This document shows positions 4,866 through 31,337 of a stretch of 64,000 nucleotides of DNA, piece by piece. Source of the DNA: a virus; the IMG/VR virus record IMGVR_UViG_3300046170_000299. The stretch is one strand, 5' to 3'. A program made the position numbers and the translations under genes. Below the pieces are notes generated by a model. The model searched no databases. It saw only the letters and a list, made by a program, of their open reading frames with translations, and had not been told where the DNA came from. Numbering within the stretch: the first letter of the stretch is position 1; every line of letters begins with the position of its first letter.

Positions 4866-6038
4866 ATGGCAATCAATTTTCCCACTAGTCCCAGTACAAA
4901 TGATACTTTTACTGTAGGATTCATCACATACAAATGGGATGGAGCTAAGTGGATTGGACAGGGTGTTACTCCTGAAACTGATAGATTAGTTGAGGGTAGT
5001 AATAAGTTAGAGATTAATGATAGTAATGAATTAGTTTGGACTGGTGGTGATGCTAAGTTTGGTGGATCCTTGGAAGTTGGTGCCAACATAGATCTAACGG
5101 ATTCCACAGTTGATCTTTACTCTCAAACAACAAACGCAGCATCGAAAACTTTCCAACTGTTTTCTGATATAGGCGGTACAAAAACAGAGAAATTATCCAT
5201 TACAGCAAACGGTGCCGCCACGCTTGGTGGTGTTTGTAAGGTTGACCGTACTGTATCGGGCGATGGTTGCTTCCACGCCGCATTAAATGGGACAGTAAAA
5301 GCTTCTATCACATCAGCAGGCAGCGCCACGTTTCTTGGTGATGTTGGCATTGGAAGTAGTGCTAGTCCTAGAACTGAATTGGATTTATTTGATGGACAAC
5401 TATCATTTAGTCATAGAACAGATTATTCAATAAGATTTTATAATGGTACTGGTAATAACTGGTCTGCAATACTTAATCCTAGCATTAATGATGGAACTAA
5501 CGCTTCTGCGCTATCATTTAAGGTAGCTACAGGTGAAGCACTTCGTATAGATACTGCTGGCGAAGTAACAAAACCAAAGCAACCAGCATTTATTGTTAGG
5601 TATTCTGTTAATGAAACCACTTGGAATGTAGCGACAGACGGTTGGACAAAAATTCCTTTTGACGAAGAAAATATGGATAGGGGTGGTAATTTTAATACTT
5701 CTACTAGTGAATTCACAGCACCAGTTGCTGGTACGTATCTGTTCGGAGCAGAATTACAATTAGAAGCTCCTAATGGAATTAGTAGCGGTTATCTTACAAG
5801 TGGATCTAATTGGATGTATATTACTTTCATAGTAAATGGTTCTACAACATTGGTTGAAAGTGAAGGTGGAACTAGAACTGATGCTAATTTCAATTCGATG
5901 TATAATTCATATAATCCCACTCACCTATTGCAATTAGCTGCTGGCGATACAGTTTGTATGTACCGCAATGGAAACTATTCTACTATTAAATTTAAAGGTG
6001 GTGGCGAATCTGTTTTCTGGGGATACTTGGTAGGATAA
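4866..6038 (+). CDS. tail-fibre protein with C-terminal C1q-like domain
   Basis: N-terminus MAINFPTSPSTNDTF...YKWDGAKW is a fibre attachment motif; C-terminus PAF...IPFD...NFNTSTSEFTAPVAGTYLF...LQLAAGDTV...FWGYLVG is C1q-like. Confidence 0.8.
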   Translation: MAINFPTSPSTNDTFTVGFITYKWDGAKWIGQGVTPETDRLVEGSNKLEINDSNELVWTGGDAKFGGSLEVGANIDLTDSTVDLYSQTTNAASKTFQLFSDIGGTKTEKLSITANGAATLGGVCKVDRTVSGDGCFHAALNGTVKASITSAGSATFLGDVGIGSSASPRTELDLFDGQLSFSHRTDYSIRFYNGTGNNWSAILNPSINDGTNASALSFKVATGEALRIDTAGEVTKPKQPAFIVRYSVNETTWNVATDGWTKIPFDEENMDRGGNFNTSTSEFTAPVAGTYLFGAELQLEAPNGISSGYLTSGSNWMYITFIVNGSTTLVESEGGTRTDANFNSMYNSYNPTHLLQLAAGDTVCMYRNGNYSTIKFKGGGESVFWGYLVG

Positions 6039-6065
6039 ATAGAGCTGTTGTATTATGTGGGAGAT

Positions 6066-6497
6066 ATGTCAGAAGAAGTAAAGAAAGAAGAACCTAAAAA
6101 GAAAGGTATTCTTGGTAAACTGAAAGAAGCAGCAGACGATAAGGAAGAACAACTTGCAATTCTCTCTACCTTTGTCCGTCTTGGTATTCTTGTTTGGTCT
6201 GGTGGAATTCTTACTCTGGCGTATATTAAACTACCTCCTGCCTTGGGAATTCCTGAGCAGAAACTCGATCCAACTTTCATAGCTTCGGTCTTTACTGGAG
6301 TTTTAGCTACTTTTGGTGTGCAAGCAGCAAAGAAAGCAGGAGATGGTGGTGGTGGTAATGGTGGTGGTATCACTAAAGAACAGATGGAGAGACTGATTGA
6401 GAAGGCAGCACAAACTGCTCCTTCACAAACAATTAGAATCGAACAAGCACCTGTTAAGATTACGACCTCGGATAAAGATGACACTTACAAAATGTAA
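6066..6497 (+). CDS. conserved cyanophage membrane protein (2 TM)
   Basis: Hydrophobic segments ILVWSGGILTLAYI and FIASVFTGVLATFGV; likely start MSEEVKKEE. Confidence 0.75.
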   Translation: MSEEVKKEEPKKKGILGKLKEAADDKEEQLAILSTFVRLGILVWSGGILTLAYIKLPPALGIPEQKLDPTFIASVFTGVLATFGVQAAKKAGDGGGGNGGGITKEQMERLIEKAAQTAPSQTIRIEQAPVKITTSDKDDTYKM

Positions 6498-24419: not shown

Positions 24420-25108
24420 TATTTTGCCATCTCCTTAGATTGTGGTGTTCCGTATCCTTTCACTAGTCTTTGACCTCGGATTTTATCATAGAAGTTCTCA
24501 TCAGTATCTTTCCATACTTCAGATTTATCTATTGGAAATACCATGCCATTAACATTTTTTACAAAATCTTCTGTTGGTAATAGGATTGCAGTATCCCATT
24601 CACTTGAAGATAGATCTAGGTATAACCCTTCTACATGTGGACTTAGGTATTTATGGAAACATCTCTTAGGAATGTCAATTCTTCCTTGCATTAATTTTTT
24701 AGTAGCTATAATTCTCTTCTTTGGTGACAAGTAATGTAGGTTAGCACCCCAAAATTCAGTTTTACCTGCTGCTTTGATTACATACACTAAAGGAAACCTA
24801 TCATAGTAAGGAAGATACTTCATCTTTGCCTTATACTCAAACATATAAAGGTGTCCTGCTACTGTGTATCGACGCAATTCATTTGCATCTTGTTCATCAG
24901 CAGCGCCTACTCTGTCACTCTTTTCATTTAATATATACTTACTAAAATTTTTCTTATAACTACTAGCTTCTGATTTCACTGCATTTCTATACCATGCAAG
25001 TGATTTTTTTTCTCCGTTTGTTTTAGCGGAGACTTTTTCAAATAATGTTTTGTATCCTGGTTCTTTATTTACGTTGTTGCGCTGTATAGCGGCGAATCCT
25101 GTTGTCAT
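24419..25108 (-). CDS. gp2: DNA end protector protein
   Basis: GHLYMFEYKAKMKYLPYYDRFPLV...FWGANLHYL. Confidence 0.92.
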   Translation of the reverse strand: MTTGFAAIQRNNVNKEPGYKTLFEKVSAKTNGEKKSLAWYRNAVKSEASSYKKNFSKYILNEKSDRVGAADEQDANELRRYTVAGHLYMFEYKAKMKYLPYYDRFPLVYVIKAAGKTEFWGANLHYLSPKKRIIATKKLMQGRIDIPKRCFHKYLSPHVEGLYLDLSSSEWDTAILLPTEDFVKNVNGMVFPIDKSEVWKDTDENFYDKIRGQRLVKGYGTPQSKEMAK

Positions 25109-25574: not shown

Positions 25575-26342
25575 GTGGCAGCGGGAATTACTTCATTTTT
25601 ATCTCAGGTCAGTCGTCAAGGCGGATTCTCGTTTAGTAATAATTTTCTGGTGGAAATAAAATCTTCTCAGGAGGGTGCTAACCCATCTGATCTATTCGAT
25701 CCTAATTTGTTAGAGATCTTTTGTGAAGAAGCACAACTGCCTAACTCAAATACTGCAACTGGAACACAAATTGGATTAGTCACTGGTCTTGGTTCTGTAG
25801 ATTATCCACACACAAGAGTGTTTACAGAATTTTCTCTTACATTTATGCTAGATGCTAACTTAAATATTTTGAAAAGTTTGAATGAATGGTATTATGGTAT
25901 TATTGGTCAAGAGAATAATGTCTCAGGAGGAATTCCAATATCTCCTGATAGAGTGATGAGAGTCGGTTACAAAGATGACTATGTGTGTGACATTTATATT
26001 ACAAAGACAGAGGCTGGAAAAGATTCTTCTACTGAGAGAAAACCATTGACTTATGTCATGGAGAAAGCATGGCCATACCAAATTGATGCTATCCCACTTC
26101 AATTTGGATCCTCTCAAATAACAAAAGTAACTGCACAATTTAAATACGAAAGACATTATACTATAGCAAGAGATATTAGATCAGCTCCTCAAATTACTAA
26201 AGGTGATGGATTGGGTCCCTATGAAAGTGTTACTCCTCTTACAGATGAGCAACGATTAGAGAACTTTAAGAGGGAAGTAGCTGTGACTGGTAATAGAAAT
26301 CTTGCGAGACGAATGGTGAATGCCTTCCCCATGGATCAGTAG
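25575..26342 (+). CDS. tail-tube-fold baseplate protein (gp54/gp19-like tube initiator)
   Basis: CEEAQLPN...FSLTFMLD..LNI...WY...EKAWPYQI..I.LQFG...KVTAQFKYE. Confidence 0.75.
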   Translation: MAAGITSFLSQVSRQGGFSFSNNFLVEIKSSQEGANPSDLFDPNLLEIFCEEAQLPNSNTATGTQIGLVTGLGSVDYPHTRVFTEFSLTFMLDANLNILKSLNEWYYGIIGQENNVSGGIPISPDRVMRVGYKDDYVCDIYITKTEAGKDSSTERKPLTYVMEKAWPYQIDAIPLQFGSSQITKVTAQFKYERHYTIARDIRSAPQITKGDGLGPYESVTPLTDEQRLENFKREVAVTGNRNLARRMVNAFPMDQ

Positions 26343-26377
26343 GGTCAAATCGCAATTTTCAATTCCATGAAAGTGGG

Positions 26378-26412
26378 AAAAAAATTCCCGATATTTTTCG
26401 TCTGAAAAAGTC
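26378..26412. repeat. phased A/T-tract motif, copy 2
   Basis: AAAAAAATTCCCGATATTTTTCGTCTGAAAAAGTC, directly before a late promoter. Confidence 0.55.
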
Positions 26413-26418
26413 GCTAAA

Positions 26419-26426
26419 TATAAATA
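26419..26426 (+). promoter_or_regulatory. late promoter TATAAATA
   Basis: Perfect T4 late consensus 20 nt upstream of gp26. Confidence 0.8.
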
Positions 26427-26445: not shown

Positions 26446-27159
26446 ATGGCGTTGCCACAAGTTGTTCTCCCAACTTATGAGTTGGAAATTCCTTCTAATG
26501 GGAAAAAATTGAGATATCGTCCTTTTGTTGTAAAAGAAGAAAAGGTACTTCTAATAGCTTTAGAAACTCAGGATGAAAAAGAAATTGAAAAAGCTGTCAA
26601 ATTTCTCTTAAAGGGTTGTATTCAGTCAAGAATTAAACTTGAGGATTTAGCAATGTTTGATTTGGAATATATTTTCCTTCAAATTCGTGCTGTATCTGTT
26701 GGTGAAATTGTACAGATGAATGTAACTTGTAAAGATGATGAAAAAACGCAAGTTAAGTATAATCTGAATCTGACTGAGGTTAAGGTTAACAAACCAGAAG
26801 GACATGACTCTAAAATCATGCTAAATGATGAACTTGGTGTTATTATGAAGTATCCTTCTTGGACTGAATTCATTAGTGGATCTATTATGGGTCAAACTCC
26901 ATCTACAGATGGTATAGTTGAAATTATTGCTGAATGTATTGATCAGATCTTTGATAAAGAGGATGTATATGACAAATCTACTACTACTAAAAAAGAATTT
27001 GTCCAATTTGTAGAAGGATTGACCAATACTCAATTTGAAAAAATTCAAAAGTTTTTTGAGTCTACTCCTAGATTAGAACATACATTTACGGTTACAAATC
27101 CAGAGACAGGAGTTGAATCTGAGTTTTTAATTAATGGATTAACTAATTTTTTCGGATAG
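26446..27159 (+). CDS. gp26: baseplate hub assembly chaperone
   Basis: MALPQVVLPTYELEIPS..KLRYRPFVVKEEKVLLIALE...FDLEYIFLQIRAVSVGE...ends LTNFFG. Confidence 0.92.
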   Translation: MALPQVVLPTYELEIPSNGKKLRYRPFVVKEEKVLLIALETQDEKEIEKAVKFLLKGCIQSRIKLEDLAMFDLEYIFLQIRAVSVGEIVQMNVTCKDDEKTQVKYNLNLTEVKVNKPEGHDSKIMLNDELGVIMKYPSWTEFISGSIMGQTPSTDGIVEIIAECIDQIFDKEDVYDKSTTTKKEFVQFVEGLTNTQFEKIQKFFESTPRLEHTFTVTNPETGVESEFLINGLTNFFG

Positions 27160-27184
27160 CCCTCTTCCATAACACGCTAGAGGG
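27147..27184 (+). other. candidate -1 ribosomal frameshift signal
   Basis: Heptamer T_TTT_TTC (27147-27153), 6-nt spacer, then stem CCCTCT/AGAGGG (27160-27165/27179-27184). Confidence 0.65.
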
Positions 27185-27338
27185 ATACTACAAAACTAAC
27201 TTTGCTTTGATGCATCATCATAAATACTCTTTGACTGAGATTGAAAATATGATGCCATGGGAGAGACAGGTATATACTAGTCTCTTAATGCAACATCTAG
27301 ATAATGTCAAAAAAGCACAAGAAGCTAAGCAAAAATAA
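27147..27338 (+). CDS. gp51: baseplate hub assembly protein; -1 frame relative to gp26 (first ATG at 27210 gives only 42 aa)
   Basis: FFRIALFHNTLEGYYKTNFALMHHHKYSLTEIENMMPWERQVYTSLLMQHL; YSL.EIENM.PWER is the gp51 signature. Confidence 0.85.
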   Translation, partial: FFRIALFHNTLEGYYKTNFALMHHHKYSLTEIENMMPWERQVYTSLLMQHLDNVKKAQEAKQK

Positions 27339-29900
27339 TGGCACACGGATTTTTATCATATCAAGATAGCAGAGGTAAATCTGGGATTGAGAGAGCTCTG
27401 GAGGATTATCTTGAGAAGAAATTTAAAGATCTAAAAGAACATTTATTCAGAGAACGTAAAAAAACAGACCAGAAAATTGATGAAGTTTCTGTAAAAGTAG
27501 AAGGACCTGCTGCTCTGGGAGCAGGACAACAACCTTTATTATCGGGTGGAAATCAAAAAGCAGTAGCAGCAGCACCTTTACAAAGAATGCTTGGTGGCAC
27601 TGCATTACAAAAATCAATTGCAGCAGGTCCTTCAGCAATAAATCCAGAGGTTTATGGTGGTGGATTAGCTAGGGGTGGATTTAATGGAAGACCACTAAAA
27701 TCAGAAGGATTTGTTTCTGATAGAATTGTAAATATCGGTTCTACAAATCTTGGTGTAGAAAGAGATATTGGCGGTGACGATATGTTCGTCAAACGCATGG
27801 AACCTGTTGGTGGAGATAGTGGAGAAGTAGTACAGGCAATTGATAGATTGACCATGGTCACCATGGGTCTAGTTGCTGCTACAAAACAACAAACACAAGT
27901 TCAACAACAGATTGCTCAAACACAGCAACAAGAAGCAGAAAAATTAGGAAGAAAATCACTAGCAGCTTCAGAAGAATTTGCTCTAGAACAAGGTGGAGAC
28001 TTCTCTAACAACGCTGCTTATATGGGTCTTGGAGCAAACGGCATGGCCTTGATGGGTGCTGGTGGTGGTGGATCACGTAGAGGTGGTGGTCCTGGCATGG
28101 GTTTTGGTGGCAAAGCAATGGCGGCGCGACTAGGAAGAACTGTGATGAAGAGAGGTGGCGCTAGAGCTGGAACAAGACTTGGCATTGCTCTGGGTGGTAG
28201 GATGAGCAAAGGTCTTGGAAAAGGTTTAGGAAAAAAATTAGGTGGAAAAGCAATTGGTAAACTTGCTGGTGGAGCACTTGCAAAGAGTTTAGGAAAGAAA
28301 ATTCCACTGGTAGGATTAGGACTAGGTGCTGTTTTTGCTGCTCAAAGAGCACTACAGGGTGATTTCCTTGGTGCTGGTTTAGGAATTAGCTTCTGGTGCA
28401 GCATCTACTATTCCTGGTGCTGGTACTGCTGCTTCTGTCGGTATTGATGCTGCTTTAGCTGCAAAAGATATGACATCCTTCTCAGAAGGTGGAATTCCTA
28501 CTGGAGACAATGTTGTTGCTTTACTTAATGATAGACCAGATAAAAAACGAGAGGCAGTATTGCCTCTAACTGATAAAACTTTCTTAGACTTTGGTGAAGG
28601 AATTTTAAATGCACAGAAAAAAAATAAAAATACGTTTGCTAAATTGCAAGCACAAGGAATGGCGCAATACTATGATAAGCAAAGTGGTTGGTCAGGGTTT
28701 ATCGATGGTTTCATAAAAGTCTTTAAACAGTTAACTGGTGGAATCAAGATTTTTGGTAAAAAACTCTTTAATTGGGGAAATGATGGAGATGATGATTCCT
28801 CATCAAATGATGGTATTAGTGGAGAAAAAGGAGATCCAAAAATAAAACTAGGTAGTTCCGAAGAAGCAAGAATTGCTGCTGCTCTAGTAACTGAAGGTGC
28901 TGGTGGAACTGCTTCTACTGATATTTTACAGGTTCTAGCAAATAGAATGGAAAGTGATAAATATGGAAACAAGTTATACTGACATTCTATCTGCAAGAGG
29001 TCAATTTGCTGGTGTATTTGATAGATATGGCGCAGGAAATGAAGAAAAAGCAATTTCTGAATTCAGAGGAATTAGTTCTATTGAAGATGCAGCTGCATTT
29101 GCAGGTGTTTCAGAGAAGGTAATTAAACAAAGAATTGCTGATATGAGAAATGCTGAATTAAGAAAGAGTTCCGCAGAACATGTTGGTGGAGCACTAGAGT
29201 TTAGAGCAGCTCCTGGTTACTATACGGCAGACGGAGGAGAACGTCTAGTTGAAGGTGAAATGGGATCTGATGGTAGATTCTATGGTTCTTCGTGGAGAGG
29301 TGGATCAGGTGACAACCAGTATTTGACAACTGCTGGTAAAGATCCAATGCTTTCTAGGTGGTGCGGCAAGTGTTGACTATGATGGAATGACAACTACTCC
29401 AGACGCAAAACCAGACCGAAAAACCAGACCCACCAGCTGGTGCTGACTGGACAAAATCATTGAATCTGGGTAACCAACCGTTTATTGATTTTGGTGATGA
29501 TAATCAGTTTCGTGCTGCCAAGAACGGTAATGGTGGGTATACTATCACGAAAAAAACAGGTTTTCTTGGTGCTAGGCAACGCATTGAAACTAAAGGTAAA
29601 AACCTTGACTTAAAACCTCTATTAATAGAGGCTGCTGCAAAAGAAGTAAGTTCCTTAAATCCAACAACAGATAATGACTCAAACAAACTTGCTACAACTG
29701 TTGATAATCCCGATGCATTAAATATAGCTTCTGTAGATGCTCAAACTGCTTCTGCAGGAGCAACTACAATTAACTACATCACCAACAACACATCTGGTGA
29801 TAAATCTTCTGGAGGAGGAGATGATGTAGCATTAGGAACTAACTTTGATGGTATGGGTCCTAATCCAATCTTTACTACTATGGCATTTAGAGCTGCCTAA
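27338..29900 (+). CDS. tape-measure-like protein with SleB/Hydrolase_2-type cell-wall hydrolase domain; about 4 frameshifts
   Basis: Track ORFs 27338-28447, 28470-28982, 28954-29376 and 29460-29900 join after removing single bases near 28383, 28965, 29355 and 29420. Gln-rich coiled coil, Gly/Lys-rich KKIPLVGLGLG segment, and LVTEGAGG...ILQVLANR...ILSARGQF. Confidence 0.7.
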
Positions 29901-29903
29901 ACT

Positions 29904-31337
29904 ATGGAAAATTTTTCTTCACCAACTGATTTCGTACTTAAAAGTTTTAGAATTTTTAAGGGAGGAACTAATACAGATATTGAGATTAAAAAATTAGTTG
30001 CAAATTTTGAATATATTGAGTCTATTTTAAGTCCCTTTATAGTAGCTGGTGCTACTCTAGTTGATAGTGCTGGTTTACTTGGATCTCTTCCTATTAAAGG
30101 TGGAGAAAGGGTAATTATTGAAATGTTGACAAATATTAGTGAGGTTCCAATTCGATATGATATGGTTCTTTGGAGAGTCTCTGATCGTTTTGCTCAACAA
30201 CAGAAACAAGTATATAAAATTGGTTTAATATCTCCTGAAGCATTGGCGAATGAAATTACAAGAGTTAATGTTGTAATGGAAGGTAATCCTGAGGGGATTA
30301 TTAAAAAGATGATAAAACAACCAGAATATATTGGTAGTCAAAAAGAGTTTTTCTCAGAACCTTCTTTATTTGAAAATAAAATAATTCCTAATAATAAAAG
30401 ACCATTTGATCTTATTACACAACTAGCAGTTAAGAGTATTTCTCCTAAAGCTAAGTTTGAAACTAAGAATACATCAAACAATAATAAATCAGAACAACAA
30501 ATTAAAGGCAGTGGTGGATTTTTCTTTTGGGAAACACGTAGAGGATATAATTTCTTTGCAGTTGATTCTTTATGTGCTGATGATAAAAGTCCTCTAAAAT
30601 CTGATAGATTACAGGTAAAAGCATGGGGTGATGCACCAAATAAACCTTATACTGAAAGATTGGGAAATATTGGAGATGGTGCGGATGAAAGATTTACAAT
30701 TAAAAAATCTATCTTTGATTCTGAGGTTGATACTCTTGCATCTTTAAGAGTGGGAAAATATTCTTCTTTAATAGTATTCTTCAATCATTCAACAGGGCAA
30801 TATGAAGAGTATGTCTATAAAATTAAAGATAGTTATGATAACATGTCACATCTTGGAGGACAAGATTCTCTTTCTTTAATTCCTGTACAAAATGTAGAAT
30901 TATCTGATTACCCTAGTAGAATTATGTCAGTATACTTAGATCATGAATCTTGGTCTAATGAACTCGAACCTGCTTCACCAGAACCAAGAGATAAATCTAA
31001 ATCCCCAACAAAATTTGCTGATTGGCAAAAATATTATATGGCACAATCTATAGCAAGGTATAGGTTACTTACAAATCAGAAGTGTAGTATCGTAATACCT
31101 GGAAATGCTGAAATATGTGCAGGAGACAGAATTAATGTTAGACTAGTCAGTAAGCTACCAACTTCATTAGGAAAGGACGAACCTTTCGATTTGGAGAGTA
31201 GCGGACAATACTTGATTCAAGAAGTAACGCATTCTTTTGATCCTTTATCTGGATCAAATGGTACATTTTACACCACATTGCGCTTGATGAGAGACTCTTA
31301 TGGACAAAAGGATAAAGTGTCCTCACATAGTAAATAA
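29904..31337 (+). CDS. baseplate hub protein (gp27-like position)
   Basis: FEYIESILSPFI...LVDSAGL...GGERV...FFFWETRRGYNF..VDSL...IPGNAEICAGD.I...SSGQYLI..VTH. Confidence 0.75.
   Translation: MENFSSPTDFVLKSFRIFKGGTNTDIEIKKLVANFEYIESILSPFIVAGATLVDSAGLLGSLPIKGGERVIIEMLTNISEVPIRYDMVLWRVSDRFAQQQKQVYKIGLISPEALANEITRVNVVMEGNPEGIIKKMIKQPEYIGSQKEFFSEPSLFENKIIPNNKRPFDLITQLAVKSISPKAKFETKNTSNNNKSEQQIKGSGGFFFWETRRGYNFFAVDSLCADDKSPLKSDRLQVKAWGDAPNKPYTERLGNIGDGADERFTIKKSIFDSEVDTLASLRVGKYSSLIVFFNHSTGQYEEYVYKIKDSYDNMSHLGGQDSLSLIPVQNVELSDYPSRIMSVYLDHESWSNELEPASPEPRDKSKSPTKFADWQKYYMAQSIARYRLLTNQKCSIVIPGNAEICAGDRINVRLVSKLPTSLGKDEPFDLESSGQYLIQEVTHSFDPLSGSNGTFYTTLRLMRDSYGQKDKVSSHSK

Follow-up and report, generated by a model that had tools for sequence, protein, structure and literature searches.

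Xu, Hendrix and Duda are said to have described, in 2004, a conserved -1 frameshift in the genes for tail assembly chaperones of long-tailed phages. In the contractile-tailed phage P2, a chaperone -1 frameshift (E/E+E', in the FETUD tail operon) is found directly before the tape-measure gene. According to a review, all long-tailed phages "except T4" share the conserved G-T frameshifting (Atkins et al. 2016, PMC5009743), and gp26 and gp51 of T4 have been listed as hub assembly chaperones (Leiman et al. 2010, PMC3004832). The present analysis concerns gene 26 of a cyanomyovirus, in a stretch of 64,000 nucleotides (nt) from the record IMGVR_UViG_3300046170_000299, given as one strand, 5' to 3', and referred to here as the window. 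The nearest isolates are S-WAM2 and S-CAM4, with about 79% nucleotide identity. An earlier note on this DNA, made from the letters alone, had proposed a programmed -1 frameshift that fuses gp26 to gp51. This proposal is supported by the heptamer, the switch of coding frame and the hairpin across relatives. Gene 26 is probably decoded in two ways, by a hairpin-assisted ribosomal -1 slip on U_UUU_UUC; the probability of this reading is put at about 0.78.

This kind of element has been reported before. Vladimirov, Gautam and Davidson (Virology 2022) reportedly identified gp26/gp51-type chaperone genes in T4-like phages. The PRFect preprint sums up their work by saying that, in some T4-like phages, frameshifting is replaced by a short gene together with a longer, fused one (PMC10274946), and Chaplin et al. 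2025 cite it for poly-T -1 frameshift signals in the TAC-N genes (TAC, tail assembly chaperone) of T4-like phages (PMC12846349). The gene kind in T4-like phages had already been described in 2022. The novelty implied by the earlier note is therefore withdrawn, and the window locus is a confirmation and extension, not a discovery. No experimental demonstration of the gene 26 frameshift in a cyanophage was found in the literature searched. It is conceivable, but rather doubtful, that the 2022 work settled only the homology and the two-gene solution of T4, and that a hairpin-stimulated ribosomal -1 slip in the Kyanoviridae finds its first specific support in the evidence given here. Such a reading would be based on the enriched hairpin with its register-coupled codons, the frame switch at the heptamer, and the T_TTA_AAC heptamer of a Rhizobium phage.

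Slip site and change of coding frame

The 3' end of gene 26 in the window reads AAT TTT TTC GGA TAG, and contains a slippery heptamer followed by a short spacer (Table 1). In the -1 frame, a TAA at 27144-27146 is followed by 63 open codons up to the TAA at 27336-27338, which shares one base with the ATG of the next gene at 27338. Normal decoding gives a product of 237 amino acids (aa); a -1 slip would give gp26 residues 1-236 plus 61 further residues, a product of 297 aa (TAC-NC). The earliest ATG in the -1 frame is at 27210, and there is a TTG at 27207. On re-reading, the details that the earlier note had given for this junction (the gene end, the heptamer, the spacer, the stem, the -1 frame and the ATG at 27210) were all correct.

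The comparison set consisted of 169 loci with a usable junction, taken from viral contigs and phage records. The entropy analysis used two cyanophage clades, with 64 and 66 distinct junction sequences. T_TTT_TT[C/T] ends gene 26 in 168 of the 169 loci; the exception is Salmonella phage Det7. All seven heptamer positions have zero entropy in both clades. The three wobble positions of the heptamer are all invariant, compared with 0/79 and 1/79 of the third-codon positions in the upstream 240 nt of the two clades, and within these 240 nt invariant runs reach at most 2 nt in one of the clades and 5 nt in the second. The codon preceding the run always ends with T (AAT, AGT, TCT, GAT, GCT), despite synonymous alternatives. 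The earlier note had named, as a check, an alignment of gene 26 ends across cyanomyoviruses; the comparison shows conservation of the heptamer and of an open -1 frame, both in the cyanomyoviruses and beyond them. In the window itself, the two strands together hold 22 copies of TTTTTTC where 18.8 are expected, which is the level of chance, and thus the significance of the heptamer rests on its conservation.

The codon periodicity changes to the -1 frame exactly at the heptamer. Upstream of it, the entropies of the three codon positions in the 0 frame are 0.61/0.48/1.23. In the 19 codons from the heptamer to the annotated ATG, the values in the -1 frame are 0.20/0.06/0.78, which are similar to those of the annotated gp51 part (0.33/0.20/0.82). 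This pattern shows protein-level selection on the 19 codons 5' of the annotated gp51 ATG, and it bears out the fusion reading of the earlier note, in which the coding -1 frame begins upstream of that ATG. The last 0-frame codon is variable among relatives (Gly, Ala, Val, Glu, Asp, Arg), and its variable base falls on the wobble position of the -1-frame Arg codon CGN, which is conserved. The -1-frame translations of the relatives are unrelated 5' of the slip point, but conserved from Phe-Phe onward. No ATG, GTG or TTG was found between the slip site and 27207 in the window's clade; the peptide RIALFHNTLEGYYKTNFAL is conserved although this clade has no start codon upstream of 27207. The ATA at 27156 is replaced by GTA in several relatives, and therefore does not count as a conserved start. 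At the 27210 position, by contrast, relatives share a conserved ATG.

Downstream RNA structure

The hairpin that follows the spacer (Table 1) is presumed to be the frameshift stimulator. In the window it folds with -9 kcal/mol (z -2.2), and 4 of 200 shuffled sequences fold equally well. The 47 nt 3' of the heptamer were folded for 88 distinct relatives, with 2016 windows inside gene 26 as the control. The mean folding energy was -13.0 kcal/mol for the downstream sequences and -5.3 kcal/mol (standard deviation 2.6) for the control, and 88% of the downstream sequences were below the 5th percentile of the control. A downstream hairpin is thus strongly enriched among the relatives.

The stems begin about 5-8 nt past the heptamer, and their register and sequence differ by clade (i+j 36 vs 39). 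As the register differs between clades, support for the stem was taken from the folding energy against the control windows and from codon coupling. Synonymous codons are coupled to the stem: GCC occurs with CTA and GAG (20/20), while GCA occurs with TTG or CTG, and mostly with GAA. For the Phe codon, TTC is invariant only in those cases in which the stem includes it. This codon-stem coupling may be partly due to shared ancestry.

Protein families and comparison with T4

In the Pfam scan, gp26 matched PF12322 (T4_baseplate) over residues 9-236 with an E value of 1e-69; it also covers positions 5-232 of the phrog_150 profile. The 63-residue -1 peptide matches phrog_634, annotated as "baseplate hub assembly catalyst" (E 9.4e-28), and also positions 231-279 of the 282 positions of phrog_150, the profile of the gp26 family. 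Since gp26 and the -1 peptide fall on one phrog_150 profile, some members of this family are natural fusions. Among 139 full-length representatives of the family clusters, a single residue follows Phe-Phe in 89, and Phe-Phe is itself the end in 16. About 16 of the 139 (P0018, P0033, P0046, P0097, and others) have no terminal Phe-Phe, and most of these end with ...SFL[G/E]. Such ends would fit T_TTT_TTA/G, with conservation of the nucleotide run and not of the residue.

Both T4 gp26 (208 aa) and T4 gp51 (249 aa) belong to PF12322, as does gp26 of the window. T4 gp26 consists of PF12322 alone (E 8.8e-64); T4 gp51 consists of PF12322 over residues 1-201 (E 3.9e-52) and a tail. The alignment of residues 200-245 of T4 gp51 with the -1 peptide begins at the slip point (BLASTP E 4e-4; hhalign E 2.1e-5), and the gp26 profile aligns to residues 6-185 of T4 gp51 (E 2.6e-7). 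In these alignments, the predicted 297-aa long form is colinear with T4 gp51. The earlier note was right that T4 encodes 26 and 51 separately, but its view of gp51 needs a correction, as T4 gp51 itself combines a gp26-like PF12322 domain with the extension.

The short and long forms of T4 are encoded by two divergently transcribed paralogous genes, whereas the window has one gene with an overlapping -1 open reading frame (ORF). The number of PF12322 genes is one in the window, one apiece in the complete S-WAM2, S-RSM4, P-SSM2 and Aeh1 genomes, and two in T4. Gene 26 of T4 ends with GAG TTC TTT GAG TTA CTA TAA, in which Phe-Phe is kept in a non-slippery form. T4 appears to have turned the two forms into a hard-wired pair of paralogous genes, derived from the frameshift that long-tailed phages have in general. 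The exception made for T4 in the 2016 review would then apply only to the close relatives of T4. The T4 record also annotates an internal product, 26', which is the C-terminal 95 residues of gp26 (5803-6090 of the T4 locus), and T4 may make three proteins of the PF12322 family.

The AlphaFold2 model of gp26 has a pLDDT (predicted local distance difference test) score of 93.6. In an exhaustive structural search, residues 1-90 of the model matched the HK97 tail assembly chaperone 2ob9 (Z 7.7, 84 residues, root-mean-square deviation 3.7), as well as 3fgx and YqbN 3klu (Z 7.6 each); these Z values of 7.6-7.7 are moderate. The rows below the chaperones were 5ir0, a protein of unknown function (Z 5.2), and others with Z of 4.4 or less. 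A Foldseek search of the model against the Protein Data Bank gave nothing significant, the highest-probability row being HK97 2ob9, and a search by sequence found no Protein Data Bank entry that matched gp26 or T4 gp51. The modelled N-terminal domain of gp26 resembles the tail assembly chaperone fold, and in this respect is like HK97 gp10, YqbN and 3fgx. By sequence, gp26 falls only in PF12322, which is a family separate from the classical chaperone Pfam families; the Pfam scan found no classical chaperone family for it.

Like lambda gpG/gpGT, the window gene lies between a tube gene and a tape-measure(-like) gene: the gene order is the tail-tube family gene, gene 26, the extension, the tape-measure-like gene, and the tail/hub protein gene. 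Together with the resemblance of the N-terminal domain to 2ob9, 3fgx and 3klu, this order agrees with the lambda G/GT-like chaperone proposed in the earlier note. However, gp26 has about twice the length of lambda gpG and carries further domains beyond residue 90, and the heptamer of the window is U_UUU_UUC, compared with G_GGA_AAG in lambda. The -1 extension was modelled as a part separate from gp26. Its model (pLDDT 82.6) has three helices, at residues 11-25, 29-33 and 37-62, and the annotated gp51 Met (27210) is residue 22 of the -1 peptide, inside the predicted helix 11-25.

Proposed decoding of gene 26

In the proposed mechanism, most ribosomes would read gene 26 to the TAG at 27157-27159 and produce the 237-aa short form. 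A minority of ribosomes would pause over the hairpin at 27160-27184, with two tRNA-Phe on the UUU UUC of 27147-27153. These ribosomes would move back by one base and go on translating in the -1 frame up to the UAA at 27336-27338. The long form would thus be composed of gp26 residues 1-236 and the 61 residues of the extension, the last 42 of which are the "gp51" of the databases. The short and long forms would correspond to T4 gp26 and gp51, respectively. By analogy with lambda gpG/gpGT, the domain shared by the two forms would coat the tape-measure-like protein encoded just downstream, and the extension, small and helical, would bring in a further component of the tail or hub. What the compared sequences show directly is the signal and how well it is conserved, a -1 frame that is coding from the slip site on, and the colinearity of the predicted long form with T4 gp51; we infer the ribosomal nature of the slip, its efficiency, and the binding partners.

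Several points weigh against this mechanism. The hairpin of the window itself is weak, with 6 base pairs and the z of only -2.2 given above, and folding of the 3' sequence gave no comparable hairpin in the Aeh1 group. Protein-level conservation of Phe-Phe in both frames explains part of the conservation of the T run. The compared sequences are also phylogenetically related, and the entropy counts are not independent events. The P-SSM2-like phages and Syn1 have an ATG shortly after the gene 26 stop; therefore, independent initiation of a 57-aa peptide is possible in these phages. Finally, the frameshift is proposed here from sequence, and both the long form and the efficiency are predicted.

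Alternative explanations

The 297-aa fusion might also be produced by transcriptional slippage, in which RNA polymerase adds an extra U on the T6 run and a subset of the mRNAs encodes the fusion. One extra U would yield the identical protein, and nearly all lineages have a homopolymer run as their slip site, with T7 in some relatives. However, six T residues are short for efficient polymerase slippage. The enriched hairpin 5-8 nt downstream fits a ribosomal stimulator, because it is untranscribed while the polymerase sits on the run, and the T_TTA_AAC of Rhizobium phage RHph_I1_18 is a tandem-tRNA slip site, which is poor for polymerase slippage. The published descriptions point in the same direction: in the preprint that cites the 2022 work, the "other mechanism" is the separate gene pair of T4 (PMC10274946), and the 2025 study calls the poly-T runs "-1 frameshift signals" (PMC12846349). 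Transcriptional slippage is therefore considered unlikely.

It is quite improbable that no recoding takes place and that gp26 (237 aa) and a small gp51 (42-43 aa, from the ATG at 27210 or the TTG at 27207) are made independently. A separate small gp51 is indeed annotated in S-RSM4, Syn1, P-SSM2, DLP_6 and D484, in line with the assumption of current GenBank annotations, and the position of the ATG is conserved. However, the 19 codons before this ATG are protein-constrained, with an invariant peptide and no start codon in the clade, and the Met at residue 22 lies inside a predicted helix of the extension. Neither a promoter-like site nor a clear ribosome-binding site precedes the ATG at 27210. 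Independent synthesis would also leave unexplained the invariant wobble bases of the heptamer, the hairpin, and the gp26-like domain ahead of this peptide in T4 gp51; moreover, Aeh1 and VmeM-32 carry the -1 ORF without an annotated gene. The small peptide could be made in addition to the fusion. A homopolymer error of sequencing or assembly, with T7 and a simple fused gene in the true genome, was also considered, since the tape-measure-like neighbour is broken into several ORFs unlike its relatives and assembly indels are possible. The T6 run, the 0-frame stop and the -1 ORF are nevertheless alike in 168/169 loci, which come from independent isolates, metagenomes, and complete genomes of cultured phages. 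An error is thus excluded for practical purposes, and the earlier note had likewise regarded it as unlikely.

Distribution among phages and annotation of gp51

The features on which the ribosomal -1 frameshift is proposed are not restricted to the close relatives of the window. The heptamer, an early 0-frame stop and a gp51-like -1 ORF are found in Prochlorococcus phage P-SSM2, Aeromonas phage Aeh1 and Vibrio phage D484, and the same layout is present in Stenotrophomonas phage DLP_6, Vibrio phage VmeM-32 (T_TTT_TTT) and Rhizobium phage IG49. In Rhizobium phage RHph_I1_18 (about 1400-1440 of its locus record), T_TTA_AAC, a different canonical heptamer, has independently taken the place of the T run, and the 0 frame runs 9 codons further before its stop. 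No relatives of the Vibrio D484 gene were found in the viral contigs. In Salmonella phage Det7 (Ackermannviridae), gene 26 ends with GAG ATT TTC ATT TAA and has no canonical heptamer; the -1 frame of Det7 still encodes a gp51-like peptide (...MPWHLDLL...; about 1925-2100 of the locus record).

The cyanophage and vibriophage gp51 proteins were reported to be without the first ~200 residues, at ~20% of the length of T4 gp51, and Aeh1 was reported to be without gp51, which was left unexplained (Sullivan et al. 2010, PMC3037559). The -1 fusion would explain both the "truncated" gp51 of cyanophages and vibriophages and the "missing" gp51 of Aeh1. The small separate gene is annotated in the five phages named above. 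It is wholly unannotated in S-WAM2, Aeh1 and VmeM-32, yet the -1 frame encodes a clear gp51-like peptide in these phages (at 2313-2492, about 1900-2100, and about 1400-1620 of the locus records, respectively). The reported absence of gp51 in Aeh1 is thus an annotation gap. In most public records of cyanophages and T4-like phages, gp51 is either a separate gene of 43-57 aa or omitted, and consequently the long chaperone form is missing from the protein databases. In the window, the ORF that corresponds to this small gene is probably only the C-terminal part of the -1 extension. The locus might serve as a clean natural system for the study of -1 frameshifting in marine cyanobacteria.

Neighbouring genes and other sequence features

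The features of the locus are summarized in Table 1.

Table 1. Coordinates of gene 26, its frameshift elements and the neighbouring features in the window.
Feature	Position	Strand	Description
Tail-tube-family gene	25575-26342	+	Pfam PF23849 Phage_TTP_2, E 3.6e-78; phrog_45 tail tube, E 2e-42
Late-promoter-like motif TATAAATA	26419-26426	+	T4-type; 20 nt 5' of the gene 26 ATG
Gene 26	26446-27159	+	0-frame product of 237 aa, short chaperone form (TAC-N)
Slippery heptamer T_TTT_TTC	27147-27153	+	X_XXY_YYZ phase; 0-frame TTT TTC encode Phe235 and Phe236
Spacer GGATAG	27154-27159	+	6 nt; holds the 0-frame stop TAG 27157-27159
Downstream hairpin (presumed stimulator)	27160-27184	+	CCCTCT 27160-27165 pairs with AGAGGG 27179-27184; 13-nt loop
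-1-frame extension	27153-27338	+	61 codons (CGG ... AAA) and TAA 27336-27338
ORF 27210-27338	27210-27338	+	42 aa from ATG; usually annotated in relatives as a separate gene, "gp51"
Tape-measure-like gene	27338-29900	+	At least 4 ORFs: 27338-28447, 28470-28982, 28954-29376, 29460-29900
Tail/hub protein gene	29904-31337	+	phrog_350 tail protein, E 1.8e-118
Peptide IALFHNTLEGYYK			Tryptic; in the -1 extension, upstream of the annotated Met 27210
Junction peptide of the predicted fusion			...GLTNFFR; the 0-frame C-terminus is ...NFFG

A terminator-like hairpin with a T run (26374-26390) precedes TATAAATA. The motif is likely the start of the 26/51/tape-measure transcript; we assume its promoter function from its likeness to the late promoters of T4-like phages. 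No promoter-like or terminator-like sites were found in the window sequence between gene 26 and the ATG at 27210.

Three pieces of the tape-measure-like gene match phrog_18972 in order (profile positions 1-346, 378-466 and 729-853 of 865), and the piece that does not map onto this profile is 28954-29376. The relatives have an unbroken ORF of more than 438-512 aa at the tape-measure-like position. The split gene points to assembly indel errors or a decayed gene. A tape-measure role is suggested for it by the gene position and the Gly/Ala/Lys-rich composition. Next to the tail/hub protein gene position, the neighbouring gene is annotated in some relatives as "late control gene D protein". P2 has a gpD-type hub gene further downstream, which we take to be comparable to the tail/hub protein gene of the window, although P2 belongs to a different sequence family.

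The copies of TTTTTTC are unevenly distributed between the strands of the window. Twenty of the 22 are on the - strand, and the + strand has just two, one at 25006 and one that is the slip site of gene 26. The bias may reflect the avoidance of sense-strand T runs, or merely purine-rich coding strands.

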